Assembly (NCBI GenBank): GCA_964016885.1
Contig: OZ024756.1
Location: 1,302,001-1,366,000, forward strand
From: Eledone cirrhosa
Taxonomy: Eukaryota
Direction: 5' to 3'
DNA length: 64,000 nt
How positions within the stretch are numbered: the first letter of the stretch is position 1; each line of letters opens with the position of its first letter. The notes under the pieces are model-generated. The model was not told the DNA's origin. It worked only from the letters and a program-made list of their open reading frames with translations, and searched no databases. Of this stretch, positions 4,876 through 52,838 are shown piece by piece. The position numbers were made by a program, and so were the translations under genes.

Positions 4876-21726
<16,851 letters not shown>

Positions 21727-21910: not shown

Positions 21911-24836
21911 ACACAAGCCAAGTAGATTATATCCTTACCAGGAGACGTGACAGAGTGTCTGTTGTAAACACTAAATCCCTCCCCCATGAAGAATGCACCT
22001 CTCAACATAGACTCATAATTAGCGACCTCATAGTCAGGACGAGACATATTCGACAACAGAAGAGGACTATCCTCAGGAGAGAAATATGGAAATTAAAGGA
22101 CCCCACAGCCAGTAATAAATTTAAAAGCATATTACTTGATGCATTTGATAGTAAGGAAGAGCAATTAGAGTTGTACAATATAGAGGAACAGTGGGAATTC
22201 CTGAAAGCTAACTTGCTGAAGGCGACAGATGAAACCTGTGGCTGGAGCAGGCCTATAGGCAGGAGGAGAGTAACTTGGTGGTGGAACAGTAAGGTGGAGA
22301 GGTCAATCAAGGCCAAAAAAGCAGGCTTGGAAAGCATGGCGGGATGGGGGAAGTAGAGAAGACTATCAAGTGGCCAGGAGGGAAGCTAGGAGACAAGTGT
22401 ACTTCGCAAGAAGGGAAGCAGAGCAAAGAAAGTTCAAGCATGTTCTACAACGCGAGGACCAAAAACGTGAGGTGTTCAGGATTGCTAGGCAATGTGTCAA
22501 GGAAAACAGTGATATTGTCGGGGAGAAGTATGTCCTTAATGATGATGGTGTACTTGCCATCACTGACGCTGATAAGAAGGTAGCTTGGAAGTGTCACTAC
22601 GAAAGGCTACTAAATGAGGAGAATAATTGGGAGAAAGACAGTCTCCCCCACATCGACCCAATAGAGGGACCAGCAGTGCAAGTTGAAGGTAGTATAATAA
22701 GTAAGGCGATCAAAGACATGAAGACGGGCAAGGCGGCCGGGCCTTCGGAAATAGTTGCCGAAATGCTGAAAGCATCTGGAACGGTGGGACGCACTATGGT
22801 CACCCGGATAGTAAACCAAGTCATACGGAATGGGGTCGTTCCGAAGGACTGGCGCAGCAGCATCATCATTAACTGCTACAAGGGTAAAGGTGATGCTCTA
22901 GATAGGGGAAACTATAGAGGCATTAAATTAATTGACCAGGTCATGAAGGTCACAGAAAAAGTAATAGCGCAACTAATCAGAGAGCGAATTGATCTAGACT
23001 ATATGCAGTTCGGTTTTGTGTCAGGTAAAAGTACAACAGACGCTCTTTTCATTGTACAAGAACTACAGCAGAAGTACCTAGCTAAAAGTAAACCCCTATA
23101 CTTAGTTTTTGTGGACTTGGAGAAAGCCTTTGACAGAGTACCCAGCTCGATTATCTGGTGGGCCCTTAGAAAACTAGGTGTTGATGAATGGCTTGTGAGA
23201 GCTATACAAGCCATGTATAAAGAAACAGTCAGCAAGGTTAGAATTAACAACGTATATAGTGAAGAGTTTAGCGTAAAAGTTGGTGTTTATCAGGGCTCCG
23301 TCCTTAGCCCCCTACTATTTATTATTGCCCTTCAGGCTATAACAGAGGAGTTCAAGACCGGCTGCCCATGGGAACTCCTATATGCAGATGACCTAACGCT
23401 CATAGCTAAATCAATGTCTGAACTAGAGAAGAAATTCCAAACATCGAAGCATGGCCTAGAATCAAAAGGCCTTAAAGTTAACTTGTCTAAGACTAAAGTT
23501 CTAGTTTGTAGGAAGGAAAATAGGGCACCGGTCCCATCTGGGAAATGGCCATGCTCAGTGTGTAGGAAAGGAGTAGGTAGAAACTCCATTTTATGTCCCA
23601 AATGCAAAGTATGGGTACATAAAAGATGTAGTGGGATCACAGGTAAGCTAACTAAGAATATAGATTTTATATGTGGCCGGTGCTCTGGTGCAATAAGTAG
23701 CAGCAAGTGCCCACAGAATACTAACTCATTCCATTGCACAGATGGTTCTATAGAAATAGTGGATAGCTTCCGTTACCTGGGTGACAAAATCAGCAGTGGG
23801 GGAGGGTGCTCTGAAAGTACAGTAGCTAGAGTCAGAACGGGATGGAAAAAGTTCAGAGAGCTTATACCACTATTGGCCGCTAAAGGGTTCTCTCTAAAAG
23901 TGAAAGGCAAGCTGTATGATGCCTGCATACAAACAGCAATGTTACATGGCAGTGAGACCTGGGCATTGTGTGCAGAGGATATACGCAGACTGGAGAGAAA
24001 CGAAGCTTGCATGCTCCGCTGGATGTGTAATAGTAATATACGTGAACGGCAAAGCATAAACGACCTAAGGGAGAAATTAGGAATAAGAGGGATCAGATGT
24101 TGTTTACTCGAGAGAAGACTACGTTGGTATGGTCACGTGATGCGCATGAAAGACGACAGCTGTATAAAAAAGTGCAGGGCAATAAAAATAGACGGTAGCC
24201 ACGGAGTAGGCAGACCAAGAAAAACCTGGGACGACTTGTTAAATTCCGACCTCACACACTTACACCTCTCCAAGACAATGTCACTGGACCGAGATCTTTG
24301 GCGCTACACAGTAATAGAGAAGACCCGCCTTACCTAAGTGCAAAGTGAAACCTACTACAGTCAGTAGGCACCTCTAACAAAATACCCCCCCCCCCTACCC
24401 TACCCCCCTTAAATGTGAAGTTATGTTGGTACCACAACATCCAGTCCGAAACAAATGAGGTCGTGTAGGTGATACGACAAAAAACACACAGTCCACGCTG
24501 TAATGTGGCCGTGTAGGTAACACGGTAAAAACCTCCCAGTCCACACTGAAAACGTGGTTGGTGTTGGGAAGGGCACCCAGCCGTAGAAAACCCGCCAGAC
24601 GTGTAGGTGTCAGGACAAAAAAACACACAGTCCACGCTGTAATGAGGCCGTATAGGTAACACGGTAAAAACCTCCCAGTCCAAAGTGGTTGGTGTTAGGA
24701 AGGGCATCCAGCCGTAGAAAGCCCGCCAGACAGTCCTATACGAGCAGGACAACAAATCTTGCCTCAAGTGGGAAAACTCCCGTCCAAACCCATGGAAGCG
24801 TGGAAGATAGACGTTAAACGATGATGATGATGATGA
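21911..24836 (+). mobile_element. RTE-clade LINE, 5'-truncated (end of APE domain + RT), with 3' UTR
   Basis: ORFs 21877-22356 (SQVDYIL...SQHRLI) and 22370-24337 (FVDLEKAFDRV, LLYADDL). The 3' UTR contains a ~140-bp duplication and ends GACGTTAAAC(GAT)n, then (TA)n. Confidence 0.93.
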
Positions 24837-26645: not shown

Positions 26646-26723
26646 ATTGCCTCGTCTGACGAACGAATGAAGACGTTTCTTTCGTATTCGCCTCATTCGG
26701 GAAACCTCTGGTAATGAGGTAAT
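26646..26723 (+). ncRNA. Type I hammerhead ribozyme
   Basis: Stem I ATTGCCTCGT/ATGAGGTAAT; core CTGACGA; stem II CGAATGA/TCATTCG; GAAA; stem III CC-tct-GG; GUA cleavage triplet. Confidence 0.8.
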
Positions 26724-27027: not shown

Positions 27028-27644
27028 CATATAGAGAGAATTGAGGTTGTTAATGGCACATGGAATATATAAGAGACAGAATACTTTTTTGTGAAAAAAC
27101 ATATTATTTTATAAGGTAAGGAAAGAATAAAAAGTTTCAATTTGAATGGGAAATTCCTGTTTCATCGATTTTCTCCGTAACCATGGAAGCTTGTACCTAA
27201 AAGTCGACCCAACACCTCCTCGGGTCATTCAGCATAACTGTGTAAATTTTCGCTGCATTCCACCAAGCCATTTCGACGTTTATCCGACTACACTTACTTA
27301 CTTACTTAAATATACAACGTCCGACCACTTCCAATTTATATAGTAGATATATATATAATATATTATATATATATAGTATATATATTATATATATATATTG
27401 AATATTATATATATATATATATATATTGAATATTATATATATATATTACAAATCTCAAATTTTAACTCTTCTTATTATACATTTTTCTTAACATTAATCA
27501 ACATTTCAAAAGATAGCTTTTGCAGACCCATCGAAACCGGTCATTTTTTATACCCTTTATTCTTTCCTTACCTTATAAAATAATGTTTTTTCACAAAAAA
27601 GTATTCTGTCTCTTATATATTCCATGTGCCATTACCAACCTCAA

Positions 27645-27750
<106 letters not shown>

Positions 27751-28045
27751 TGAAACAAAATGAAAACGAAATTTCATTTCTCACTCTTAGTATGGCACTT
27801 ACTTAAATGTAAGTATGCATGTATACGTACATACATATATGTATACAGACGTACAGTAGCATGCACATATATATATATATACATATATACATACATATGC
27901 ATACAGGTACACATACATATATGCACGTATCAGTTTAGCGGCGCTAACGTCGCTTTGTTCGTTTGTAAACAAACTGAACAGCCTGAATTTATGCCATACG
28001 GTGTTAAGGCAACCACGTCACCTTTTTGTTCAACACTGACACAGG

Positions 28046-28090
28046 AACGATGTACTAGTTTCAAGCTTGTTAGCTATCATCAGCACCGTT
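28046..28090 (-). ncRNA. Minimal type I hammerhead (464-bp unit)
   Basis: AACGGTG-CTGATGA-tAGCtaacaaGCTt-GAAA-CTAG-TA-CATCGTT. Confidence 0.85.
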
Positions 28091-28509
28091 TACCCATCTG
28101 CCAGATAGTTGAACGTTCGAAAGTATATACTTTCCTTATGAAAATTAACGGCTGAGCAGCCTAATTTGCATATTGAGTGAGTTAAATCGGTCAGGCATAC
28201 CGAAAACGATAAATTGAAACAAAATGAAAACGAAATTTCATTTCTCACTCTTAGTATGGCACTTACTTAAATGTAAGTATGCATGTATACGTACATACAT
28301 ATATGTATACAGACGTACAGTAGCATGCACATATATATATATATACATATATACATACATATGCATACAGGTACACATACATATATGCACGTATCAGTTT
28401 AGCGGCGCTAACGTCGCTTTGTTCGTTTGTAAACAAACTGAACAGCCTGAATTTATGCCATACGGTGTTAAGGCAACCACGTCACCTTTTTGTTCAACAC
28501 TGACACAGG

Positions 28510-28554
28510 AACGATGTACTAGTTTCAAGCTTGTTAGCTATCATCAGCACCGTT
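28510..28554 (-). ncRNA. Minimal type I hammerhead (464-bp unit)
   Basis: Identical motif, one unit downstream. Confidence 0.85.
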
Positions 28555-29092
28555 TACCCATCTGCCAGATAGTTGAACGTTCGAAAGTATATACTTTCCT
28601 TATGAAAATTAACGGCTGAGCAGCCTAATTTGCATATTGAGTGAGTTAAATCGGTCAGGCATACCGAAAACGATAAATTGAAACAAAATGAAAACGAAAT
28701 TTCATTTCTCACTCTTAGTATGGCACTTACTTAAATGTAAGTATGCATGTATACGTACATACATATATGTATACAGACGTACAGTAGCATGCACATATAT
28801 ACATATATACCTGTATGCATATGTATGTATATATGTATATATATATATATATGTGCATGCTACTGTACGTCTGTATACATATATGTATGTACGTATACAT
28901 GCATACTTACATTTAAGTAAGTGCCATACTAAGAGTGAGAAATGAAATTTCGTTTTCATTTTGTTTCAATTTATCGTTTTCGGTATGCCTGACCGATTTA
29001 ACTCACTCAATATGCAAATTAGGCTGCTCAGCCGTTAATTTTCATAAGGAAAGTATATACTTTCGAACGTTCAACTATCTGGCAGTTGGGTA

Positions 29093-29137
29093 AACGGTGC
29101 TGATGATAGCTAACAAGCTTGAAACTAGTACATCGTT
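29093..29137 (+). ncRNA. Minimal type I hammerhead (464-bp unit, inverted arm)
   Basis: CTGATGA 29100-29106, GAAA 29121-29124, CTAG, TA, stem I AACGGTG/CATCGTT. Confidence 0.85.
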
Positions 29138-29556
29138 CCTGTGTCAGTGTTGAACAAAAAGGTGACGTGGTTGCCTTAACACCGTATGGCATAAATTCAG
29201 GCTGTTCAGTTTGTTTACAAACGAACAAAGCGACGTTAGCGTCACTAAACTGATACGTGCATATATGTATGTGTACCTGTATGCATATGTATGTATATAT
29301 GTATATATATATATATGTGCATGCTACTGTACGTCTGTATACATATATGTATGTACGTATACATGCATACTTACATTTAAGTAAGTGCCATACTAAGAGT
29401 GAGAAATGAAATTTCGTTTTCATTTTGTTTCAATTTATCGTTTTCGGTATGCCTGACCGATTTAACTCACTCAATATGCAAATTAGGCTGCTCAGCCGTT
29501 AATTTTCATAAGGAAAGTATATACTTTCGAACGTTCAACTATCTGGCAGATGGGTA

Positions 29557-29601
29557 AACGGTGCTGATGATAGCTAACAAGCTTGAAACTAGTACATCGT
29601 T
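29557..29601 (+). ncRNA. Minimal type I hammerhead (464-bp unit, inverted arm)
   Basis: CTGATGA at 29564, same fold. Confidence 0.85.
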
Positions 29602-29833
29602 CCTGTGTCAGTGTTGAACAAAAAGGTGACGTGGTTGCCTTAACACCGTATGGCATAAATTCAGGCTGTTCAGTTTGTTTACAAACGAACAAAGCGACGT
29701 TAGCGCCGCTAAACTGATACGTGCATATATGTATGTGTACCTGTATGCATATGTATGTATATATGTATATATATATATATGTGCATGCTACTGTACGTCT
29801 GTATACATATATGTATGTACGTATACATGCATA

Positions 29834-29970
<137 letters not shown>

Positions 29971-30553
29971 TTGAGGTTGGTAATGGCACATGGAATATAT
30001 AAGAGACAGATTACTTTTTTGTGAAAAAACATAATTTTATAAGGTAAGGAAATAATAAAGGGTATAAAAAATGACCGGTTTCGATGGGTCTGCAAAAGCC
30101 ATCTTTTCAAATGTTGATTAATATTAAGAAAAATTAATAATACGAAGAGTTAAAATTTGAGACTTGAAAATTCAAGTATAAATTTCATTGTGGGATTTCA
30201 TAGCAGTTTTCATCTAGGTAGCAACAACAGGTTGACTGCTGTGTCCCTTTCTGGTAGTGAATGAGAAGTTATTTGGGGTGTGGGTTATTTTATAAAGGTG
30301 AGATTTAGCAATCACCAACTGGCCAGCTGCTGGTCAGTGAGGGGGTGGAAGCAATATACATACACATCTTCCTGTGATGGGTAGGAGAGTGGAGCGTGAT
30401 AGAAAGGGATTTAGTGCACTTACACCTATATATACACACATACCTACATCCACACATACATACATATACATATACATATATATATATACATATATATACA
30501 TATACACACATACATATACATACACACATACACACACACACATATATACACAT

Positions 30554-31139: not shown

Positions 31140-34100
31140 GTTTAACATGGATGTGTTGGTCACACAAAGGCATGGTCTGTCAATGAATAAACCTGATTCT
31201 ACAGAATTGGTCTCTGGTCTTTAATAGTAGTGATTCCGTGCGTATGTGTGTTTATATTTTATGACAATTCTATTGGGGTGATAACCCGTTTAGTTTTGGT
31301 TTAAATTTGTTGAGGAATAGATTTTCTTTGTTTATTCTTTGTTGCTGTGTGAACGAATCTGAGCACTTGTAGAAGGGGAAGATTTTAAAGTTGGGTAGTG
31401 TCATTCCTGCGCAGTTCGTAATATGGCTGCTCAAGGGGATTTTTCTTGTGTTAGCGTCCCGGATTTGTTGGCGGTGGATGGTCATTCTTTTGCGTAATGA
31501 GGTGCCCGTCTGTCCTATGTAGTTGTGTTTGCACCCACCGCAAGTTATTGCGTAAATCAAATTCTCCGAGTTGCAGGTGAAATTGTTTTTTACTGTAAAT
31601 GTTTGGCCATCTTTGAATGTAAATGTTTGTCCTTCAGTGAGGTAGAGGCACGTTCCACAGTTTGTTCTACCACATTTGGTAACTGTAGGGTTGAGGATTG
31701 GTTTGGGTATATTTGGTCCAGTGAGAATGCGTTTAAGTGATTTGGGTTGTCTTTTACTTTTAAGGATCTTGTGTGTTTCAAGAATAGACTTCATTTTTAC
31801 ATCTTTAAGTAGGATGGGGAGGTTTTTGTGTAGGTGATCAAACATTTCGGTATTTCTGGGGTTGAAAGTGGATACATATAGCAGGGTGTTGAGTGTGGTT
31901 TTCTGTTTTGGATTGTTAAGTTGATGGGGATTTAGGTGTTTTGCCCTGTCTATTCCATTGTTGATTATTTCAAGTGGAAAGGCTCTTAAGATAAGGGTGT
32001 CTTTTAGTTCCTTTAGTCTTTGCTCCCGTTTAGGTGGATCTGATACTATGGTACATATACGTTTGGCCAAATTGTAAGGAATGTTAAGTTTTGTATGTTT
32101 TGGGTGACTTGATGTGAAAAAGAGGTATTGCTTGGAATCTGTGGGTTTATAGAATATATCTGTATCTAATTTCCCGTCTATTACAGAGATGAGAATATCC
32201 AAGAAGGCTAATTCCTTAGGATTGGATTCCATTGTGAATTGTATGTTATTATCTATGTTGTTTATCATGTTTTTAAACGTAGTAAGTGAGTTCATGTCTT
32301 CTTGCCATAGGATAAAGCAGTCGTCTAGATATCTTTTCCAATTGGCTTTGAGGTGTGTGTGGAAAGAGTCTCCAAATAAGAGAAGGGACTGACTGTATAT
32401 TTGTTGTTCATGGAATCTCATGACTAGGTTGGCATATGTGGGTGCTACTTTCGTGCCCATTGCCGTACCTGATACTTGTCTGTATGTTGAACCATTGAAT
32501 GTGAAGTAGTTATTTTGTAGGATAAAGCGGAGTCCGTCAGTGATAAAATCTGTGTTGATGCGTGTCGGTATTTCTGATGGGTGTGTGTTAAGCCAGTATT
32601 GGACTGCTGTTATTCCATAGTTGTGAGGTATGTTTGTGTAGAGGTTTATTACGTCAAAGGAGACAAGAATTGTATTTGCACTTACTGTTTTAGGGAGGTG
32701 TTTCAGCATGTCAAGGTCATCTCGTATGTAGCTCTGTATATGTTGTAGAAAGGGTTTCAGTAGGATGTCCAGAAAGTTGCTAAGTCTGTGGGTTTCACAT
32801 GTAGGGCCTGCTATAATTGGCCTGAGTTTTAGGTCTTCTGGTGGTGTTAGTTCAATGTAATTGTTGGTTGAGGTGTCACATGCATCGTTTATGGGTTTAC
32901 ATTTGTGAAGTTTCGGTAAGCCGTAAAAAGAGCTTGTATTGCATTTGAAGTGGCTTATATAGTTAAACTCTTTTGTGGTTAAGCTGTTGCGGTATTTATT
33001 CAGTAAGGTCAAAAGGTTCCCCATTGTTTTGGTGTGTTTGTAGTTTTCTGTTTTTTCATAGTATGTGTTGTTTTCTAAAATGTTAAGTGCGAGGGTCCTA
33101 TAGTAGTCCGTATTCATAATCACAACAGTACTGCCTTTATCGGCTTCTTTGATAGTTATCTCAGGGTTGTTTCTAAGTGTGAATAATTCTTCCCATTCGT
33201 GTGTAGATAGGTTTGATTTCGTGTGTTTATTTGTAATTTTTTCATAGGGAAAGTTGGTGATGTGTTCGCAGTACGTGTCCAGTGCTTTATTTCTTCCCTT
33301 TTGTGGGCAGAAATTGCTTTTATTTCTAACCAGTGATTCGTCTTCAGTGTTGGTGTCGTTGTGGAAGAATTCCGTTAGTCGCAGCTTTCGGCAGTATTCC
33401 ATGATGTCATCCTTCATTTCGGGGAAGTTTGGTTTACGTGGTGTAGGTGTAAATTTCAGGCCCTTACTTAAAATGTTGATTTGTGTGTTGGTTAGAGGTG
33501 TCTTTGAGAGGTTGATTATTTTTGGTTTCTCCTGAGGGGGGGGGGGGGGGGGGCATCGAGTATCCTGGTATTTCAGGCTTTTCCCTAAAAAAGGAATGTA
33601 GTTTTGTGTGTGATTATATTTTGTTGGTCTGTTGCGTGTGGGTCTGTAGCTTGTTGTTTCATGAGGGTGAATGTGATGGTGGGGGGTGGTATGTGTTGTG
33701 GTTGTTGATGAGCAAGGGTTCTGTTGTTGGTTCATGTGGTCTGGGTGCGTTATTTCTGTGGTACAGAGTGTTGAGGCTGGGGGGTTGTCTTTTGTTGGAT
33801 TGAGGGTGATGTCTGGTGTGGTTGTGGGTAAGTTCTGTTGTGATTTCAAGTGGTCTGGGTGGATTTCTTCTGAGGAATGTGGTGTGTGTGTTGTGAGTTG
33901 GATCTATGTTATTTCGTCGTTGGTTTATGTAGGAGGCATTTCTACGGAAACCTGTGTTGTGGTGGTTGGGTGTGTTTCTTTTGGTGTAGTTGGCCGTATT
34001 TGGTTTGTGTTGGTGGGGGATGTGCCTGTGGTTAGTGTGTGTTGGGTTTGGTGGTGTAAATGTGTCTGTTGTAGTTCTTGTTATGTTCAAATGCTTTATA

Positions 34101-34428: not shown

Positions 34429-34553
34429 AATATGGTTTTATAAATATAGTTTCCATTTATTAATATCGTATATCTACTCCAAATACTTGTCGAGTGCTTT
34501 ATATCAGTTATGAAAATATTTACTTGTATCCCAACAATTTTAAATAGAACTTT

Positions 34554-34637
<84 letters not shown>

Positions 34638-34700
34638 TGTATATATATGAGAGACGTAAAATAAGAAAATTATAAAATTAACTTACTTACTAGAATTTCA

Positions 34701-34780
34701 CTTCCAACTAATTAGTTTCTGAAATGGAATAAATATACTTTCCGAAGAAAATAAAGAGAAGCATTTCGTCGTCAGGGAAG
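34701..34780 (-). ncRNA. Type I hammerhead with a long loop II
   Basis: Mirror image of 35442-35521. Confidence 0.65.
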
Positions 34781-35441
34781 ACTATTCTCAGCTAAGTATC
34801 CAGGCAATGCGTGGACTCTGGAAACTTATTCAAAAATAATTCAGTGGATAGAAAATAGCGAAGCGTGGACTGAATTCCTAGCCATTGAGAAAATCACTGC
34901 CTCTGCGTCGGTGGCAAATTCAAAAAGAATCAATCACGTGACATCGAGGTCAATCAGTCGAAAGTGGTTTGTTAATAAGACAGCGGCCTGCCTGCTACCA
35001 TAGCAGCAGTCTTGGTCAATATTGCTCGACAAATAATTTGGAGATAATTATAAAGAATTAATATCTAGTAACATATATATACATACAGATGCATATCAAT
35101 GCTAGCAAATATATAGGTTTTGTCTTAGTAACTTTGTGGTTCAATGCATGGGGTTGCAGAACAATAATATGAGAGACGTAAAATAAGAAAATTATAAAAT
35201 TAACTTACTTACTAAAATTTATGGTAGCAGGCAGGCCGCTGTCTTATTAACAAACCACTTTCCACTGATTGACCTCGATGTCACGTGATTGATTCTTTTC
35301 GAATTTGCCACCGACGCAGAGGCAGTGATTTTCTCAATGGCTAGGAATTCAGTCCACGCTTCGCTATTTTCTATCCACTGAATTATTTTTGAATAAGTTT
35401 CCAGAGTCCACGCTTTGCCTGGATACTTAGCTGAGAATAGT

Positions 35442-35521
35442 CTTCCCTGACGACGAAATGCTTCTCTTTATTTTCTTCAGAAAGTATATTTATTCCATTT
35501 CAGAAACTAATTAGTTGGAAG
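35442..35521 (+). ncRNA. Type I hammerhead with a long loop II
   Basis: CTTCC-CTGACGA-c-GAAATG...CATTTC-a-GAAA-CTAATTAG-TT-GGAAG. Confidence 0.65.
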
Positions 35522-35681
35522 TGAAATTTTAGTAAGTTAATTTTATAATTTTCTTATTTTACGTCTCTCATATTATTGTTCTGCAACCCCATGCATTGAA
35601 CCACAAAGTTACTAAGACAAAACCTATATATTTGCTAGCATTGATATGCATCTGTATGTATATATATGTTACTAGATATTA

Positions 35682-35762
<81 letters not shown>

Positions 35763-35774
35763 ATATATATATTG

Positions 35775-38068
35775 TTATACTTTGGGAGGGTCATGTTGCC
35801 AATAAGAAACACACGCACCAGTTGCTTTCACTTCAATTTCTTATAATAAATTTATAAATTTAGGAATTTATAAATTTCCGGTTTGTTGGTTGGTTCCACA
35901 ACCAGATGATTGTTTATATATTGTCAAAGTTCTTTCGTCACACATTCTGTGACCTCTTCAGTGACTGGGGATTCTTTTCTTTGTTTTTGTGCCTCTCCTT
36001 TGTTCTGTCCTACGCCATTTTGTTTCTGTGTGTGTGTTGTGTGCTCAGTCTGCGCATGCGCCACATCCGGGTGTCTGTGTGTGTTTATATTCGTTTATTT
36101 ATTTGTTTATTTACATGTTACAGGTTGGTTGTTTGTTCTATGTGCGTGTGTGTTTTCATTTTGTCCTTAATTGTAAGTTGTGATGCTGCTGTTCCACTTA
36201 TGTTTTCTATTTAATTTTGGTTGTAATTCTCTTATGTTCATTGCCTCTGTGATTTGTCTAAACATTGCGTCTTTTCTGTGTGTAGATTCTATTTTTATTT
36301 CTGTTCTCTAATTTACCCTTATGTTCTATTTTAGCATGTTGGTAGAGTACAGATGATTTTTACTATCTTGAAGGTCTCGCCAGTGTTCATTTATCCGTTC
36401 CCCTACCCTACACTACGAGCTGTCTCACCTATGTACACTATATTTTTGTCTCTACATTGTCCTTCAGTACATCTTATGCTATATACTACATTTCTAGTTT
36501 TACAGTTAATATGGGGGCTTAATTTACAGGTTATATATTTCTTATCTATACAGGGGGGTCTTTGAAAAGGGTATGTCTTGCTAATAAGTGTTTTTACGGA
36601 GGTACCTGGTCTTTCTACTATCTTAATATTGAGTTTATGTTTATCTAGGGCCCTTCTAAATTTGTAAGCTAATTCACCTCTAGGGGTTGTATCGATGAAC
36701 TTTACACTTTGGTATTTATTGCTATCATACCATGAGTTTATTCTATTAGCCTTATTCCTAGTTCTTTCTATTCTATTCCAAAATTTGCTCCTATACAAGG
36801 GGCAGGTCCCATTTGTGTCATTGTTTACCATTTTTTCCCATTTGGTTCTGGCTCCTCTATACACTCTGATTTTATCTCTCTGATTGTAACCAGAGAACTG
36901 CATATGGTGGATGAAGTGTTGTATGTGTCTCTCTAGTTCTTCGGGGTTGCACATGCGGGACACGTTTCTCATCACCCGTACCAAATCCGCAATCAGTATG
37001 TTGATTTTGGTATGGTCCGAAACAGCTGAGTTTCGGTGGATCAGATATTTGGAAGTCATGGGTTTGGCATAATGGGAATGGAGGATTTGTTTTTTTGTTA
37101 TTAATGGTATCTAACCAAAGCTCTGTGTCTAGTACAGGTAATCGATGGTTCGGGTGTTTACTTGGGTAGTCTATAGTAACTCTAATACTCTTGTGGATGG
37201 AGTTAGCTATTTACTGGATGCTTTCCATTGTGTTTTTCTCTACTTCCTGACTGTTCTCTAGTGGGGGTGTTTTAACTACGATGTTTATATCATCAACGTA
37301 GCGGGAGTACATTATCTGGGTTAAGGGGTCTTCTAATTGTTCTTTAAGTTTAAGTTTAAGTCTATTGTCCCACCATACCATGAATAAGTTAGCTATGCCG
37401 CCTGCAATGCTAACACCAATGGCTGCTCCTTCCTCTTGGGCATATGTTTTTCCATTAAATTTGAACATATGTTCCTTAAGGGTTAATTTTATGCTGGCCC
37501 CCACCGCATGTGCAATCATTTTCTTTAGTTCATCGTGGTTTTCGGGTGTCCGTATGGCTCTGGTCCACCCGTTCCATCTATCTGTGTGGGTTTTCTTGGC
37601 CATTGAGGTAATGGTAGGTGGTCTGCTTCTCGCTGGTCTTGTAGGGCACAGGTTGCTAAGGTCATATGTGTCTAGGTAATTATTACTATAGGTAAGTTTA
37701 AGTAGGAGTCCCAGCTCACTGGTATCAATCCCACGGAACTCAACATTGCTCTCACTGATCATTTCTACGCATTTCTCCACAGCAAAATCCACGTCAATAG
37801 ATGGATACAGGGACAAAACATCCATACTACCTATTATGTAGTTTGTAGGTCCCTAGATCGATTACTCTCGCCGATTCTGCTGAGGAGGTCCTCTGTGCTG
37901 TCACATACATCTGGGGACATTTCAATGATGGGGCGTATGACCAGGGAGAGGAAGTAGGACAGTCTGTAGTTACTAGCAATGTTAGCTCCACAGACTGGCC
38001 GTGTTGGTGGTCCCGTGACAGGGTCACTGCCCATTTTATGGTCTTTTCGAAGCCCATACAACGCCGTT
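35775..38068 (-). mobile_element. Degenerate Penelope-like element (third lineage), 5'-truncated, in (TA)n
   Basis: Fragmented ORFs: LYGLRKDHK..TRPVC, MDVLSLYPSID, YSRYVDDI, NVVYSIRC...VYIGETARS. HHR in the 3' region. Confidence 0.88.
35923..35965 (-). ncRNA. Minimal hammerhead in the 3' terminal region of the Penelope-like element (sense orientation)
   Basis: GTCA-CTGAAGA-g-GTCACA-gaatg-TGTGAC-GAAA-GAAC-TT-TGAC. Confidence 0.8.
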
Positions 38069-38403
38069 GTATATATATATATATATATATATGTATATGT
38101 AGATAAATCTACCAAGAGTTTACGGTAGTGTCCAATCCGTATGAAGAACTCAATGTAATCCGGATATCATGGAAAGAAGAGATGCAATGAAAATAATTTT
38201 GTATAATTTTGTACATAGATCTGTTGAATATGCATGCCAATTCTAACACATATATATCCTAGAAACGATCGTTAAATAATGAACTTTTTTTGTTTAATAT
38301 AAGGAACTGTTTCATTGTTTTATTCATTATTTTTTTAATATTTTATATATGTATATATATATATGTATATATATATATGTATATATATGTATATATATAT
38401 GTA

Positions 38404-39803
38404 TATTAGAAAGATCGAGTATCGAAAAATCGGCGCACGAGTTCACGATAAACAAAATTCGAAATGAGCGGCAGAGGGCTCAATAATTCAGATGAATCAG
38501 AGCTATAACTATCGTTAAAATACCGTCACATATAGAACAAGTCTACAATCAACCATACGATAAAAAATCGATAATAGAAGATTCGGGACAAACAGATAAA
38601 AAATATCAATAAAACAATACATCAATAATTTAAATGAATGTAAAATCATACCCGGACCCACTAGAAAGGTGTTAAATCTAGCTTCTTGGGTTTCTGTAAA
38701 TCCTTAGACTGTACTCTATCAGCTCACATATAAATATAAAAGCCTACTAGAGCAAGAGGAACGGAGTTTACTTTCTCAACGAGCTTTTTTCCTAGCGGAA
38801 AAGGGGCTAACCACCAGTGAAAAACGCACATGGCATTAGACAAGGGAGATAACCTCTACATCCGCGAAAACTATTCGAGGAAATGTGGAAATACACATAT
38901 CGAATAAGAGTGCTCAATAGACATGTTAAAATAAAACAAAAGCTATTCATCACTCAATAGAATCGACAAAAAAATGAGCAATAAAATTAACTGGTGGATA
39001 GCTATGTCCAGAGCTAAAAATATTAGAAAGATCGAGTATCGAAAAATCGGCGCACGAGTTCACGATAAACAAAATTCGAAATGAGCGGCAGAGGGCTCAA
39101 TAATTCAGATGAATCAGAGCTATAACTATCGTTAAAATACCGTCACATATAGAACAAGTCTACAATCAACCATACGATAAAAAATCGATAATAGAAGATT
39201 CGGGACAAACAGATAAAAAATATCAATAAAACAATACATCAATAATTTAAATGAATGTAAAATCATACCCGGACCCACTAGAAAGGTGTTAAATCTAGCT
39301 TCTTGGGTTTCTGTAAATCCTTAGACTGTACTCTATCAGCTCACATATAAATATAAAAGCCTACTAGAGCAAGAGGAACGGAGTTTACTTTCTCAACGAG
39401 CTTTTTTCCTAGCGGAAAAGGGGCTAACCACCAGTGAAAAACGCACATGGCATTAGACAAGGGAGATAACCTCTACATCCGCGAAAACTATTCGAGGAAA
39501 TGTGGAAATACACATATCGAATAAGAGTGCTCAATAGACATGTTAAAATAAAACAAAAGCTATTCATCACTCAATAGAATCGACAAAAAATGAGCAATAA
39601 AATTAACTGGTGGATAGCTATGTCCAGAGCTAAAAATATTAGAAAGATCGAGTATCGAAAAATCGGCGCACGAGTTCACGATAAACAAAATTCGAAATGA
39701 GCGGCAGAGGGCTCAATAATTCAGATGAATCAGAGCTATAACTATCGTTAAAATACCGTCACATATAGAACAAGTCTACAATCAACCATACGATAAAAAA
39801 TCG
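38404..39803. repeat. 617-bp non-coding tandem repeat, about 2.3 near-identical copies, in (TA)n
   Basis: TATTAGAAAGATCGAG at 38404, 39021 and 39637. Confidence 0.93.
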
Positions 39804-39804
39804 A

Positions 39805-42867: not shown

Positions 42868-44553
42868 GCAAAGAACGGGAAAAAAACGAATAATACGTCA
42901 TTAATAGGAGCGGTGAAAAACAATTACGCGCAAAGACAGAACCACGTTTATGGTATAAAAGAGGTCGTATACTAATGTTCTTTTAGGTGGTGCATAGAGA
43001 CGTTCTCTGGCAATGAACGCAAAAAACGAAGATAATAAGTCATATGTGGAGCGTGGAGAACAATAGCACGCAAAGATAAAACCACGTAAATGGTATAGCA
43101 GAAGTCGTAGACTAAAATTCTAACTAGGAGACCAAATGAATCTCCGCTACAGAGTTAAGAACAAAGTAAGTAAATACAATACAGAAGTAATAGAAACAAA
43201 TAAATACATACACGCAAACAGATACGTACATACACAAGCATACGCAAAACCTTACCATAGGTATACAAAACCACGCACATATAAATATGTGTGTGTGTGC
43301 TTGTGTACAAATAAGTAAGTAATTATATAAACGTATATAAGTAAATAAATACGTATATAACAAGCGCACACACATACCTACAAATAAATACACGAATGTT
43401 CAGAGACGTAAGTCAACCAAAACAAGAAGTACACATATACACACACCCACCATACGTACGAACCTGCTTACTCACGCAGACGCAAAACTCCCGTATACAC
43501 ATAGCCAAACTCTAAATTCCAGAATATGTAAAAATTATACGCCATAACAGTCAAATATACGTACGAGAAGGTATACATACCTTCACAAAACATACGGGTA
43601 ATATATACTTACCTATGCAAATAAGTAAAGGAATAAACAAAACATATACTTAGTTCCCACATCAAGACGTAAAATATGCACGTATAGATCGTACTATCCG
43701 TTAGGGTATAACGTGGGGCTGTAATACAGGAAAGTTTTGTGCAATTTATGTTTACAAGCCGAAATTGCCTCAGATTTTTTGTTTAAGATGTGGTCTGTGG
43801 CGTAGAGTATTTCCAGGGCCTCAGCGGCGCAGAGGTCACATGGTCTTTTATTTCCGTTATACGATCTAGCCCTAGCTAGGATCTCCCAGTGTAACTTATA
43901 TTGGGTGTGGTTGTCTTTTAGACTCCAGATATAAGCTGAAAGTGACGTCATATTCCTTCTTAGAGGGTAACGAAAAGAATGGGTATGCATGTAAAGACGC
44001 TGCTTGAAACTATTGGCGGTTAACCCTATGTAGGCCCTACGCGACGTGGGTGTTACAACCTTACATTTGTAGACAATGTTACTAGAGAGGCATTGCGTGC
44101 TATTGTTCTCCCCGCTCCACATATGACTTATTATCTTCGTTTTTTCGTTCTTTGCCAGAGAACGTCTCTATGAACCACCTAAGAGAAAATTAGTCTACGA
44201 CCTCTTTTATACCATAAACGTGGTTCTGTCTTTGCGCGTAATTGTTTTTCACCGCTCCTATTAATGACGTATTATTCATTTTTTCCCGTTCTTTGCCAGC
44301 GAACGTTTCCACGAACCAAAGTATTGTCTTCCTGTCTTCCTCCGGTTGCAACGTTTTTTGAAATATCCAGTTCTGCGTTTACAGATTGACTTTGTTAGTT
44401 TCAGAAGATCCCGTTAAGGATGAAAGCAGCGATTCTTTGCTTAAACTTTAATCTGTTATTTTAATAAATATTTGCTCTACGGTTCTTATATATTTGATAT
44501 ATATTTTCCTTATCGAGCCCTCTTTGGATTTTAGTCTTCAATTTTATTATTAT

Positions 44554-44679: not shown

Positions 44680-44987
44680 AATAGAATAGCTTTCACCGTA
44701 TCTTTGACTAAAGCAATTTTAGCCTGATGGAAAAAGATGGGTATTGACGTACATGGGATTCGAACACACATCTTTGGTTATCGCGACCACTGTGCTACCA
44801 TTACACCAACACATCATGGGTGATGTGTTGGTGTAATGGTAGCACAGTGGTCGCGATAACCAAAGATGTGGATTCGACTCCCATGTACGTCAATACCCAT
44901 CTTTTTCCATTTATCTGAAGGTTCTAAACTCTAAACCCCATTATCAGGGTAAAATTCCTTTAGTCAAAAATACGGTCAAAGCTATTC

Positions 44988-44992: not shown

Positions 44993-45018
<26 letters not shown>

Positions 45019-45132
45019 CATAGAATATTCGAAAATATTCTGTATGTTTATAATAAACATTTTGAAGACCTAATCGCTATAGAATAGAATACGTCACGTA
45101 TTACAATTAGATTCTCGACAAAAGCAAGGGAA

Positions 45133-45175
45133 GTAATCTACGCGTTTCATTCTTATTAGAAATCTTCAGGACTAC
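45133..45175 (-). ncRNA. Minimal type I hammerhead (inverted unit)
   Basis: Reverse complement of the 45305 motif. Confidence 0.85.
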
Positions 45176-45304
45176 ATATCCAGTGCTTTTATCGAGAATG
45201 ACACAGCTAGAGACTTATAGAATACTTAGCTGTGTACAGGAACTGGTTTGAAAGAGCGGTTGCCGGTCCGGCAGAAATTAGAAATTGGAATAAATGCTCT
45301 GAAT

Positions 45305-45347
45305 GTAGTCCTGAAGATTTCTAATAAGAATGAAACGCGTAGATTAC
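45305..45347 (+). ncRNA. Minimal type I hammerhead; identical copies at 45615, 45925 and 46235
   Basis: GTAGTC-CTGAAGA-tTTCTaataAGAAt-GAAA-CGCG-TA-GATTAC. Confidence 0.87.
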
Positions 45348-46434
45348 TTCCCTTGCTTTTGTCGAGAATCTAATTGTAATACGTGACGTATTCTATTCTA
45401 TAGCGATTAGGTCTTCAAAATGTTTATTATAAACATACAGAATATTTTCGAATATTCTATGTCTATATTCACATATATATCGCTATTTCAGAGCATTTAT
45501 TCCAATTTCTAATTTCTGCCGGACCGGCAACCGCTCTTTCAAACCAGTTCCTGTACACAGCTAAGTATTCTATAAGTCTCTAGCTGTGTCATTCTCGATA
45601 AAAGCACTGGATATGTAGTCCTGAAGATTTCTAATAAGAATGAAACGCGTAGATTACTTCCCTTGCTTTTGTCGAGAATCTAATTGTAATACGTGACGTA
45701 TTCTATTCTATAGCGATTAGGTCTTCAAAATGTTTATTATAAACATACAGAATATTTTCGAATATTCTATGTCTATATTCACATATATATCGCTATTTCA
45801 GAGCATTTATTCCAATTTCTAATTTCTGCCGGACCGGCAACCGCTCTTTCAAACCAGTTCCTGTACACAGCTAAGTATTCTATAAGTCTCTAGCTGTGTC
45901 ATTCTCGATAAAAGCACTGGATATGTAGTCCTGAAGATTTCTAATAAGAATGAAACGCGTAGATTACTTCCCTTGCTTTTGTCGAGAATCTAATTGTAAT
46001 ACGTGACGTATTCTATTCTATAGCGATTAGGTCTTCAAAATGTTTATTATAAACATACAGAATATTTTCGAATATTCTATGTCTATATTCACATATATAT
46101 CGCTATTTCAGAGCATTTATTCCAATTTCTAATTTCTGCCGGACCGGCAACCGCTCTTTCAAACCAGTTCCTGTACACAGCTAAGTATTCTATAAGTCTC
46201 TAGCTGTGTCATTCTCGATAAAAGCACTGGATATGTAGTCCTGAAGATTTCTAATAAGAATGAAACGCGTAGATTACTTCCCTTGCTATTGTCGAGAATC
46301 TAATTGTAATACGTGACGTATTCTATTCTATAGCGATTAGGTCTTCAAAATGTTTATTATAAACATACAGAATATTTTCGAATATTCTGTGTCTATATTC
46401 ACATATATATCGCTATTTCAGAGCATTTATTCCA

Positions 46435-46490
<56 letters not shown>

Positions 46491-46528
46491 ATATTAATAA
46501 ATGGAAACTATATTTATAAAACCATAAT

Positions 46529-46594
46529 TATTTTATTATATATATTTCAAGGGCAACCAAGGCAAATTATGGTACGCGCTCATCAGATAAAATA
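46529..46594 (-). ncRNA. Type I hammerhead (family of the 34364 motif)
   Basis: TATTTTAT-CTGATGA-imperfect stem II-GAAA-TATATA-TA-ATAAAATA; flanks are homologous to 34330-34470. Confidence 0.72.
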
Positions 46595-46699
46595 CAGATT
46601 TGTTTTATAAATAAATATTGACATACCCGGAAAAAATACAATCTTAACGGTTGAAGTTCCCCGGATAGTGGAGATAATATCTTATTGAGGGTGATACAA

Positions 46700-48912: not shown

Positions 48913-51900
48913 AGTTGCATTTATCTTGCTTTATGTTCATACGAGTTATCACCAAGTCACAACCAGTGACCTCAAGAGACAACAAGGTCCGCCATGTTCA
49001 AGAAATACACATGCATCTTTAGGTGTTTAGACTTGTGATGTACTTATATTGACAGAATCTTCCTTAGTATATGGGCAGTTCCCATTAGTACTATCTTTTG
49101 TATTTCTCCTATACGCGGGTTTCCTGGGATTTGCGATATGTAATCATTGGACCCCTTAGGTATCATTCCTAGAGCGCCTACAACCACTGGTATTGTTTTA
49201 GTTCTCAATTTCCACATTTTTCCAATTTCTATCTCCAGGTCCTTATACTTGCTCAATTTTACAAATGTTTTTATAGATACATTCTTGTCTAGTGGAACGG
49301 GCATATCAATTAGCAGGCATACCCTCTTTTTAAAGTCCTTCAGTATTATATCAGGTCTATTTGCATTTATTTTTCGGTCTGTTTGGATGCTAAAGTTCCA
49401 CAAGATTGAGATGTGATCTTTTTCAAGTATGGGAGGTGGTTGATGCTCCCACCAATTCTTTTGATGGGGCAGGTCAAAATGCTTACACATTATCCACTGT
49501 ATGTATTGTGCAGCTCTGTCATGCCTGTTTAGGTATTCGGTTGGAGCTATAGGACTGCACATTGAAATTATATGATCAATGGTCTCTGGTTGATTTTTTA
49601 CATACACGGCATAATGGGTTGCATCCAGTTTTTATTATGTTGGCTTGGTAATTTTTTGTTGGCAGACACTGATATTGTTCTGATATAATCAGTCCTTCAG
49701 TCTCCGATTTCAGTCCAGAGGATGCCAACCACTGATGGGTTAAAGTTTTGTCAACATCAGGATTGTTAGCTCGCTCTGGGTATTTTCAATACAGAGGCTT
49801 TTCTTGTCATTTCTTAGCCAGTTTCTGTAGCAGTTCTTTCTTTGCAGTTACTTTTACCCGCTTTGCTTTTTCTGTGTTTTCCATTTCAGCAGTAAATGGG
49901 ACTTCTGAAATTTGTAGTCCATTACTGTATCTTTGTGCATCTTTTGTAATGGAGTATGATCTTTTGATGCTTTCGTGTTTCAAAACGAGTTTGATCATCC
50001 AATCATGTGATTCCCTTAGATATGTAGATAATCCAATTGTTGCAGTTTTCAACGCAATATCTAACTGGATTATCCCACGTCCTCCTTCTTTCCTAGGGAG
50101 ATATATTCTATCTGTATCTACCTTAGGGTGATGCATTCTGTGCATGGTAAAGAATTTTATAATTTTTGTATCGAGCCTGTGTATCTCTGTGCTTGACCAG
50201 TTGATGACATTGTAACTGTAGGTTACTACTGGTATGGCAAGCGTGTTTATGGCATCGATCCTATTCTTTGCATTCAATTCCATTCTTAAGATTGCTCTTA
50301 CTCTGTGGTAAAATTCCTTCCTTATCCATTCCCTCATTGTCGAGTGCTTGATTCCGTTTCCTTCACAAACACCTAGATATTTGTAAGTTTCCTCTTGATC
50401 AAGTTCTCTTATCACATTCCCCCGATCAAGATTAATGTCTGAACTTTTCAGCAGCTTTCCTCTGGTGAACGTTGCTTTGGCGCATTTATCTAGTCCAAAC
50501 TCCATTTTAATGTCATCACTGAACTGCTCCACAGTGGATAATAGCCCTTGCAATTGATCATCATTTTTTGCAAATAGTTTCAGGTCATCCATGTAGAACA
50601 AGTGATTAATGGTTTTGTCATAGAGTTTATATCCATGTTTTGTTTCATTGAGCATTTTACTTAATGGTATAAGTGCGATGCAGAATAAAAGCGGTGATAA
50701 AAAGTCACCCTGAAAAATTCCACAATTAATATTAACTTCTCCAGCTTCCAGTGATTCTTTTTCACTATTCAAAAGGAGTGTCGTTTTCCATGTCTTCATA
50801 CTGAATGACAAGAACCTCCTGTCAACGGGAGATATTTTGAAAATCTCTAAACATTTTTCAATCCAACTGTGTGGCAAAATATCGAATGCTTTTTTATAAT
50901 CTATCCAAGCAATTGATAGATTTTTGTGTCTATTATGACAATCTTCCAGTATCATTTTGTTAACCAAAAACTGATCCTTACAGCCATATGAGCCTCGTTT
51001 ACACCCTTTCTGCTCTAGGTCATTTGTTATCAGGTGGTCATATGTATATTCAGTTAGGACTGATGTTAACATTTTATACATTGTGGTCAAGCAAGTTATC
51101 GGTCTGTAATTTTTGGGATTGTTTGTCTCATCATTCTTCGGAAGCAGGAATGTAATGCCGTTAACTAGCCATGATGGTATCTTTTCTGGCTCCTTAACTA
51201 TTTCATTGTAAAGTTGGGCTAACAGCTCATGAGACTCTGTGAAGGCATTTATCCAAAAATTTGGTATTTTGTCTTTTCCTGGGGATTTCCATTTGCTGGT
51301 TTTTCTAAGAGCCAATCGCAACTGTTCAACTGTTATATTTTCCCATATTTGTTCCTCAAGGGGAGCTGTATCTTTCATTTGTCTGTCTATCCATGGGGCA
51401 TGTATATTATAAACTTTTTCTTCGGCCCATATCTTTTCCCAGAATTCTTGCACTTCCTCCTTGGGTGGTATTGATTTAGCAGTTATTGTTGACATGCCAA
51501 ATTTTCTGTAGAAGTTTCTTTGGTTGTTTTTGAACATATTATTGTCCTTATAGAATCTAGATCGTTTTTCAAAGCGCCTTATACGAACAGCTTTGGCCGA
51601 CACTTTTTGCTTGATTATTTCTATCAGCATGTCTATGTCACTTGCTGATTTTATACTGTATTTTCTTTTCAATTTTCTAGATTTAGTTTGTTTAACATGT
51701 TCACCAACTTTGTAGTTTGTTAAAATGTCTATGAGAAGGAGAAGGTTTATTTGGAGATTAATGTTCTCTTGCCAAGTAGATGTCTTGTAGGAATTCTTTT
51801 GTTTTTTCATCTTCACTCCACATAAGTGAGTGGTGACTTTAGCCGATGCATAATAGAGATGATTTAAATCAGTAATGTTTAGTTTGTTTGTGATGATAAT

Positions 51901-52838
51901 GTTTTTGAGAATTATGTTAGTCTTGTGTATGATCTTTTGGTTCTGTTTGGAGTTCTGGATCTTAGGGAGGGTGTCTCGTTCCCCCATGTCAGATTCTTTC
52001 ATTTTCATCCATTCGATCATAATTTCATTCTTCAAGTTGGCAAGTTCATTCTCATTCATTTCTTTATCATTTACGATCTCATTGTTTTCATTTTGAGTTT
52101 CATCTTGAGCATGCACTCCCTCCACTTTTTCGATCCTTTCTTTAATTTGTTCTGTTGTCAGTGATTCCGCCCCAACCCTGGGATTCGAAGTGTTACAATT
52201 TACCTCGTTTTCACTGACACATGTTTCATTTTCCCTTCACTGACTTTGTGCTAATAGCTTGATCTGATCAATTTCTATATCAGTTAGTAACTTTTTTTTA
52301 ACAATAATTCTTCGTATATTGGCTAGTTTGTTACTGTCAATATAGCCTCTGTTTTCAGGATGTTTCTTTTTCCAGTTGATATATGTCTGTTCTGTATTCG
52401 ATCTATTTGATGGGTAGTACATGGCAGTGTAGAAAGCCTCAAGGACTTCTTTATTGTCTTCCCTTGACCATTTTTCTCTCTTTTTCTTTGGATTCCTTGG
52501 TGGTGAGCATGGTTGGCCAACAGTAGGAGTATTCCGGTTATGGGAGGTTTCCAGCTCCGAAGTGATGGGAAGATTTGAACCATTAGCTGATTTTTCGACC
52601 CCAGTCTGGTTCCTCTCTGAGGGACGCGGCCCTTTTTTACCCGGGTGACGGCCGATCCGGTATGAGATTTTATCATTAGACATTTACTTTATTTCGTCGC
52701 GTTTTATCCTTATCCGCCAAGGGGTAATCATTTCGTGTTACCACTTCTAGAACGAGTGTCAACCAAGACTAGAGGGGTCGTTCTCCCCTAGAGACATGGC
52801 TATTCCCCGCCGGCCGCCATCCCGGTATTTCTTGGTCA
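48913..52838 (-). mobile_element. Near-full-length R4/Dong-clade non-LTR retrotransposon (RT + RLE), disrupted
   Basis: N-terminal KWSREDNKEVLEAFY; RT motifs WIDYKKAFD, GIFQGDFLSPLLF, HLFYMDDLKL; CCHC/RLE ETIDHII..C, RHD, NRPDII, KLSKYKDL. (TAA)n on both sides. Confidence 0.92.

Follow-up and report, generated by a model that had tools for sequence, protein, structure and literature searches.

Head-to-head insertion of a 522-nt hammerhead repeat in Eledone cirrhosa, a likely non-LTR retrozyme mobilised by a PLE

We examined a 64,000-nt stretch of the Eledone cirrhosa genome, referred to here as the window, and found in it one insertion of a 522-nt repeat. The repeat is non-coding, occurs in high copy number and bears a hammerhead ribozyme (HHR) motif; it is probably a non-LTR retrozyme mobilised in trans by a Penelope-like element (PLE). 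The element is likely an ordinary insertion of this type, which alone is no proof of a circular template RNA, and its general architecture is already known. The insertion consists of two arms of the same unit between two (TA)n runs, as follows.

34557..34648, no strand: (TA)n target, left; ATAT is common to the (TA)n and the arm end
34645..35220, minus strand: left arm, 1.10 turns by alignment to the unit; 3' end at (TA)n
34649..35170, minus strand: one full 522-nt unit; GC 0.35, no ORF of at least 90 aa
35167..35220, minus strand: re-entry repeat of 34645-34698; recurrent 3'-end phase
35219..35220, no strand: head-to-head centre junction; 1-nt microhomology, non-palindromic
35220..35691, plus strand: right arm, 0.91 turns by alignment to the unit; 3' end at (TA)n
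35686..35772, no strand: (TA)n target, right; repeat seen in the sequence

An earlier, sequence-only reading had described a 522-bp cyclic unit in two differently phased arms, and this was borne out by the direct and inverted repeats and by alignment to a doubled unit. A 54-nt direct repeat (34645-34698 and 35167-35220, 98% identity) has a spacing of 522, two inverted matches link the arms (34680-35002 with 35220-35542, 323 nt; 35044-35209 with 35531-35696, 166 nt; both 98%), and the doubled 522-nt unit gave an unbroken alignment to the right arm with 467/476 identities. With phases numbered from the predicted HHR cut, the left arm runs on the minus strand from phase 8 through 522 to 61, and the right arm on the plus strand from phase 226 through 522 to about 174-179. 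The sense 3' ends of both arms point outward, each abutting (TA)n and having TA-type bases in common with the microsatellite, inside which a target-site duplication is unreadable; the two 3'-end phases are 113-118 nt apart. The unit has a GC content of 0.352, and no ORF with RT and GIY-YIG domains lies inside the element. The same reading had placed the start of the unit at 34649, a position that on the HHR strand proved to be the left arm's 3' boundary with (TA)n. It had further taken the read-through at 34649/35171 as a sign of a circular or concatemeric template. Because this point is an insertion end and not a ligation point, it is no evidence of a circle; a ribozyme-made circle would close without a scar at the HHR cut (34705/34706). 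What survived of the proposed circular or concatemeric template is that it was of RNA type, cyclic or tandem, and longer than one unit.

The unit or part of it was found in 13 of 17 listed sequencing runs, none recorded as RNA. The stretch 34649-35219, which excludes the head-to-head centre, was compared with four runs, giving matches in 2535 contigs of X1, 29 contigs of X4, 6547 RAD reads of X15 and 4086 RAD reads of X17, with most copies 90-99% identical to the unit. The 522-nt unit is thus a high-copy, diverged family, and its cyclic order is family-wide, since the X1 contigs cover 29/29 bins of the unit. The 24 loose-end entries listed include two junctions with the microsatellite. At 35167, the end phase of the left arm, 16 X1 contigs pass into (AT)n; at 35049, no more than 5 nt from where the right arm ends, one X4 contig passes into (TA)n. 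With 437 entries outside the listing, further (TA)n termini may exist. The X4 terminus is an independent event, because the right arm's junction base is missing there, and X4 coverage is zero in the three bins directly 5' of it (34989-35048), as 5' truncation predicts. The random phases expected of a circle are not supported, as both 3' termini recur in independent copies among the loose ends listed; in these, the 3' ends look preferred and the 5' truncation variable. Recurrent 3' ends are expected from the internal RT start sites described for a PLE (PMC11167929). No clear ORF sequence was seen at the loose ends listed, and a 28-nt pattern from the element had 0 matches in metagenome and viral contigs. 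Read-end pile-ups in the RAD runs X15 and X17 at 34710, 34838-41 and 35193 coincide with AATT sites, and these, along with others at 34917-20, 35056 and 35165, were rejected as element ends and read as restriction or read-length artefacts. Also rejected was a frame across 34649 reading LQPHALN, which we take to resemble the GIY-YIG C-terminal motif; it was considered as a C-terminal remnant and has no bounding ORF.

The two arms differ by 5 substitutions and one 4-nt indel or slip. Phases 180-225 are in the left arm and absent from the right, and the contiguous 522 to 179 read of the right arm is not contiguous in the left. With such arm-specific sequence or order on both sides, simple fold-back copying of one arm into the other is excluded, and since each arm crosses an intact HHR cut, the RNA template would have been longer than one unit. 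This bears on an unlikely alternative in which the unit is the pseudo-LTR (pLTR) of an autonomous PLE, with truncated pLTR tandems and a self-primed fold-back producing the inverted pair. PLEs are described as forming pLTR tandems and inverted pLTRs, with self-priming proposed for head-to-head junctions (PMC3846280), and HHRs are located in pLTRs (PMC4209133); against this, the centre is non-palindromic, the arms are not contiguous copies of each other, the 522 nt are without an ORF end, and contigs and reads of one organism (A) cover 29/29 unit bins with no clear ORF among the loose ends listed. The asymmetry of the arms, their sequence differences, their unrelated outer flanks and the recurrence of one terminus in another organism also speak against an assembly or fold-back read artefact, which we regard as very improbable even though inverted repeats beside long (TA)n runs are error-prone and the centre junction lies outside the compared stretch. 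In L1 twin priming, both target strands prime cDNA and give a head-to-head inversion with a microhomology junction. The arms of an L1 inversion come from separate, non-overlapping stretches of a single linear poly(A) RNA; the two arms here each span almost all of the cyclic unit and carry no poly(A).

Each arm carries one HHR core (CTGACGA...GAAA), the left one on the minus strand at 34775 and the right one on the plus strand at 35447; the two form an opposite-strand pair 672 bp apart.

34700..34781, minus strand: type I HHR motif, left copy; GUU site, with the cut predicted to fall between 34706 and 34705
35441..35522, plus strand: type I HHR motif, right copy; predicted cut after 35516
34737..34753, minus strand: 7-bp hairpin capped by UUCG, predicted by folding within 'loop II'

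An HHR with a helix III and a GUU site had been read from the sequence, and in each arm we recovered the core with its three helices. Helix I is 5 bp long, helix II is 6 bp long with a basal C.A mismatch, and helix III lies within the 10-nt palindrome ACTAATTAGT (= ACUAAUUAGU), with a self-pairing energy of -9.0 kcal/mol. GUU is an allowed but weaker hammerhead cleavage site. Loop II had been called unusually long at about 36 nt. It measures 35 nt, but folding predicts an internal loop of 8/9 nt and a hairpin of 7 bp within it, which would make it a structured extension of helix II; the predicted tetraloop is UUCG in the left copy and UUCA in the right. A motif scan for HHRs returned 15 matches in the window, compared with none in any of 10 block-shuffled versions of it. 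Rfam gave no hammerhead match at gathering score and none at E<=10 over 34500-35800, where only miRNA-type chance matches were returned, mostly on TA runs. The 82-nt motif folds unconstrained into a three-way junction, with a stability no better than that of shuffles (z -0.6), and helix I has P<=0.21 in 6/6 longer sequence contexts and is weak even without the blocker described below.

Several natural variants fall in these helices. The variant 34781 A>T (399/628 X15 reads) extends helix I to 6 bp, ACUCC, a 5' strand seen at loose ends in each of the four runs, would pair with GGAGU, a 3' strand found in one X4 contig, and one X4 contig has a different sequence in loop II that still gives a 7-bp hairpin. 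Judged from their sequences, which were read by hand among those listed, with 135 variant rows outside the listing, the natural variants keep the predicted HHR helices. The isolated fold and these helix-keeping variants support the modelled HHR structure; given the shuffle-like stability and the weak helix I, self-cleavage is a prediction. A palindromic helix III is also described for dimer-acting HHRs (PMC4209133), and 8 of 9 retrozyme dimers tested in a Xenopus study did not cleave (bioRxiv 10.64898/2026.07.22.740005). Beside the motif, it was noted that a splice-acceptor-like TTTTCTTCAG lies at 35471-35480, inside the right arm's helix II extension, and a donor-like GTAAGT at 35532, just past the HHR cut; PLE introns overlap HHRs in Drosophila. 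Both splice-like motifs were rejected, their frequency being within chance expectation.

Phases 262-277 of the unit are complementary to 16 nt around the HHR cut, and this segment was identified as a candidate antisense blocker or splint in both arms.

34951..34966, minus strand: antisense blocker/splint, left copy; predicted pairing with 34699-34714 across the cut
35256..35271, plus strand: antisense blocker/splint, right copy; family-type C opposite the cut

In a monomer released by cleavage, the splint should pair with the two ends at once (predicted P 0.76-1.0 per pair), which would place the nick mid-helix. The duplex ranks 3 among 522 positions. The left-copy energy of -20.1 was reached by 1/2000 shuffles and the right-copy, family-type energy of -16.2 by 20/2000, the weaker right-copy figure being the fair one because the right copy has the family allele at 34959; an energy of -16.4 was reached by 0/294 window tiles. 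Pairing across the cleavage site thus has p of about 0.01 to 0.0005. Forcing the HHR in the circular fold costs 13.5 kcal/mol, a predicted off state. A variant blocker, CACUCCU (18 X1 contigs, 619 X15 reads and 425 X17 reads), and a variant target, GGGAGUG (34703 T>C; 22 X1 contigs, 25/38 X15 reads and 13/19 X17 reads), fit in register; if linked, these variants would represent one two-sided and two one-sided changes. The splint is apparently viroid-like and covarying with its cut-site target. Blocking of the HHR by a complementary segment is described as typical of plant retrozymes and viroids, and as rare in animal retrozymes except some from mussel (PMC7229834).

The insertion has the geometry of PLE-type integration, being head-to-head, 5'-truncated and placed in an AT-rich microsatellite target. 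PLE insertions are described as tandem or inverted, with tails and a (TA)n bias (PMC8557442, PMC8969392), head-to-head being the commonest inverted form (PMC3846280) and HHR pairs lying on opposite strands 100-700 bp apart (PMC4209133). Work with a purified PLE protein showed cleavage of AT-rich DNA, extension on both strands and two internal start sites on the RNA, with uncut RNA as the main substrate (PMC11167929). Against the fit, the end offset of 113-118 nt is longer than the PLE tail of 30-40 nt, and the right terminus recurs in one contig. Under the PLE-mobilised retrozyme reading that we prefer, a tandem locus would give a transcript longer than one unit, in which the HHR may be held mostly off by the 16-nt antisense segment and the weak palindromic helix III. 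A PLE reverse transcriptase-endonuclease would then nick both strands of the (TA)n, and cDNA synthesis would be primed from each nick, starting at one of two favoured positions inside the RNA, some 57-61 and 174-179 nt beyond the HHR cut, with help from TA microhomology. Each cDNA would pass an uncut or ligated HHR and stop at a variable point, and microhomology would join the two cDNA ends into the head-to-head structure. The differing phases of the arms would follow from the two start sites together with variable 5' truncation. Retrozymes are reported to derive from PLEs, with units of 51-972 bp (Li et al. 2026, bioRxiv 10.64898/2026.07.22.740005), and circRNA has already been proposed as a source of PLE copies of more than unit length (PMC4209133, PMC7229834).

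Within the PLE model, there is about an even chance that the template was an uncut or partly cut tandem transcript, and a somewhat smaller one that it was a closed circle; the 522-nt unit probably also makes circRNA. A linear 1.3-unit RNA starting at the cut site would be enough for both arms, and a circle likewise. The more specific proposal, a subset of the PLE-retrozyme reading, has as its template a covalently closed circular RNA of 522 nt, which reverse transcription starting at both nicks would have copied in rolling-circle fashion; we hold this to be possible and do not favour it. The predicted pairing of the splint with both ends of a released monomer is in keeping with it, but a linear tandem RNA would form the same helix, and the 310- and 464-nt units of the window (see below), in which a splint-like helix is absent (rank 158/310 and 400/464), still give multi-turn arms. 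These arms, of up to 3.67 units with differences of at most 0.5%, are themselves a point for the circle. The circular fold is strand-specific (z -4.5 on the HHR strand, +1.1 on the opposite strand), but one of 16 control windows folds equally well (z -4.7). Retrozyme circRNAs have been demonstrated in coral, mussel and axolotl (PMC7229834), while the PLE RT is reported to prefer uncut RNA in vitro (PMC11167929). The left arm stops 7 nt short of the HHR cut site, which resembles the 5' end of a cleaved linear RNA, but this is the case in only 1/6 arms compared and is not significant. The arms also differ at 34808, a common family polymorphism, which weakly suggests two templates. Unit-specific variants were compared by turn in the three HHR families, and none common to them separates a circle from a tandem.

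The element shares with the metazoan non-LTR retrozymes, as these are described (Cervera & de la Pena 2020, PMC7229834; Li et al. 2026, bioRxiv 10.64898/2026.07.22.740005), a non-coding sequence, GC below 50%, high copy number, co-occurrence with PLEs, and a unit, apparently tandem, with one type I HHR and a palindromic helix III; axolotl HHR_Amex2 likewise has a mismatch at the base of helix II. Its 522 nt are above the 150-450 bp given in one account (PMC7229834) and inside the 51-972 bp of another (bioRxiv 10.64898/2026.07.22.740005). It differs in its extended helix II and GUU site, is known here from DNA alone, and has an HHR that is predicted to be blocked, whereas most animal retrozymes are described as unblocked, some from mussel excepted (PMC7229834). 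The strict retrozyme rule of Li et al. is two HHRs (bioRxiv 10.64898/2026.07.22.740005); two full HHRs in tandem are present in neither arm at 34645-35691. Plant LTR retrozymes and HHR viroids carry a type III HHR (PMC7229834), whereas this unit is of type I, has no evident LTR, PBS or PPT, and is a genomic DNA element in an animal. With PLE insertions (PMC8557442, PMC3846280, PMC11167929, PMC4209133), the likeness extends to the partial tandem with a 5'-truncated inverted head-to-head copy, the microsatellite or AT-rich target, a microhomology 5' junction, opposite-strand HHR pairs and, apparently, two alternative 3' ends. The 522-nt element departs from them in having no ORF, a non-palindromic centre and an end offset of 113-118 instead of 30-40 nt.

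The insertion is also TA-flanked, non-coding and of high copy, as a DNA-level element with a chance HHR-like motif would be, either a MITE or a non-autonomous Helitron-like rolling-circle array. Rolling-circle DNA elements also make tandems. The sequence-only reading had named fixed termini with TIRs or TSDs, as in a MITE, as what would overturn its proposal; the termini here are different phases of the unit and not inverted repeats of each other. Together with the strand-specific folding signal, the preservation of the HHR helices in variants, and the three unrelated families in the window with an HHR and 3' ends outward, this makes a DNA-level origin highly unlikely.

We found no description of cephalopod retrozymes in the literature searched, although supplements of retrozyme papers may list some, or further blocked HHRs; the giant squid genome paper gives only a count of 235 hammerhead-1 motifs. 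A further and rather doubtful possibility is that this is a cephalopod retrozyme with a viroid-like 522-nt circle, in which the covarying 16-nt splint would aid ligation and then lock the ribozyme off, and a dimeric PLE enzyme would copy the circle from both TA-repeat strands at two fixed start sites. If so, such insertions would be direct genomic footprints of rolling-circle retrotransposition, and PLE head-to-head structures would be explained without self-priming. The route of tandem and inverted PLE insertion, and the movement of retrozymes via circRNA and PLE enzymes, are described as open questions (PMC8557442, PMC7229834, PMC11167929). In the 522-nt element, it is the anatomy of the insertion (two start sites, use of both strands and a TA target), and not pLTR phylogeny, that connects a unit of retrozyme type with the mechanics of PLEs. 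Being short, the element could enter the existing in vitro PLE assay as a compact template in circular or linear form, and its predicted splint is open to testing as an RNA feature for which there are few reports from animal retrozymes.

PLEs are present in the same genome as the unit, and two lie next to the insertion.

31270..33903, minus strand: PLE ORF with RT and GIY-YIG protein-domain matches; no DNA similarity to the 522-nt unit
35773..37852, minus strand: second PLE-like element, in pieces; RT-bearing at 36403-37852, ending at the same (TA)n run as the right arm

The second of these has an HHR at 35961 (minus strand). No autonomous partner emerged among the sequences compared, which counts against the retrozyme reading: the unit has no DNA similarity to the two neighbouring PLEs or to 5 of 6 other repeats tested, and the sixth gave only a 21-nt match resembling an AT microsatellite. 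It was noted that the PLE ORF at 31270-33903 contains a CxxxxCxxC linker like that described for Neptune elements, and that further PLE-like ORFs or pieces lie at 828-2303 and 43694-44167.

Two other HHR units in the window have a similar layout. A 310-nt unit at 45012-46439 is arranged head-to-head with 0.94 and 3.67 turns and 3' ends 41 nt apart, a spacing that equals a typical PLE tail length. A 464-nt unit at 27745-29837 is arranged head-to-head between (TA)n runs with 2.30 and 2.22 turns and ends 65 nt apart. The 522-, 310- and 464-nt families are unrelated in sequence, and all combine an HHR with 3' ends pointing outward. The 464-nt pair is nested in an older inverted pair at about 27449-30169, and its circular fold has z -8.7.

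Several other features were observed in the window. An older (TA)n-flanked inverted pair at 13229-14054 is 67-74% like the 310-nt family and has a degenerate HHR core. At 38403-39804, a 617-nt tandem unit makes 2.27 turns with one end at (TA)n; the motif scan found no HHR in it, and Rfam, searched over 38410-39100, gave no match at E<=5. HHR-like motifs also occur singly, in several cases with a long helix II, at 26656, 34372 and 55827 (plus strand), all three upstream of (TA)n runs, and at 46586 and 35961 (minus strand); the segment 34362-34466 matches 46491-46596. Between (TA)n runs at 44727-44910 is an inverted tRNA-like pair (44745-44815 minus, 44822-44892 plus), possibly a tRNA-derived SINE with the same head-to-head layout. 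A 116-nt imperfect palindrome at 10389-10504 directly follows a (TA)n run, and 88-1312 is duplicated at 42869-44094 with 96% identity. Outside the element, 6482-21723 holds exons of a CYP3A-like (cytochrome P450) gene, whose best match is from Octopus vulgaris (74%) and which contains a 77-bp tandem array at 18834-19285, and LINE-type RT ORFs were seen at 11069-12778, 22274-24337 and 49807-52236.
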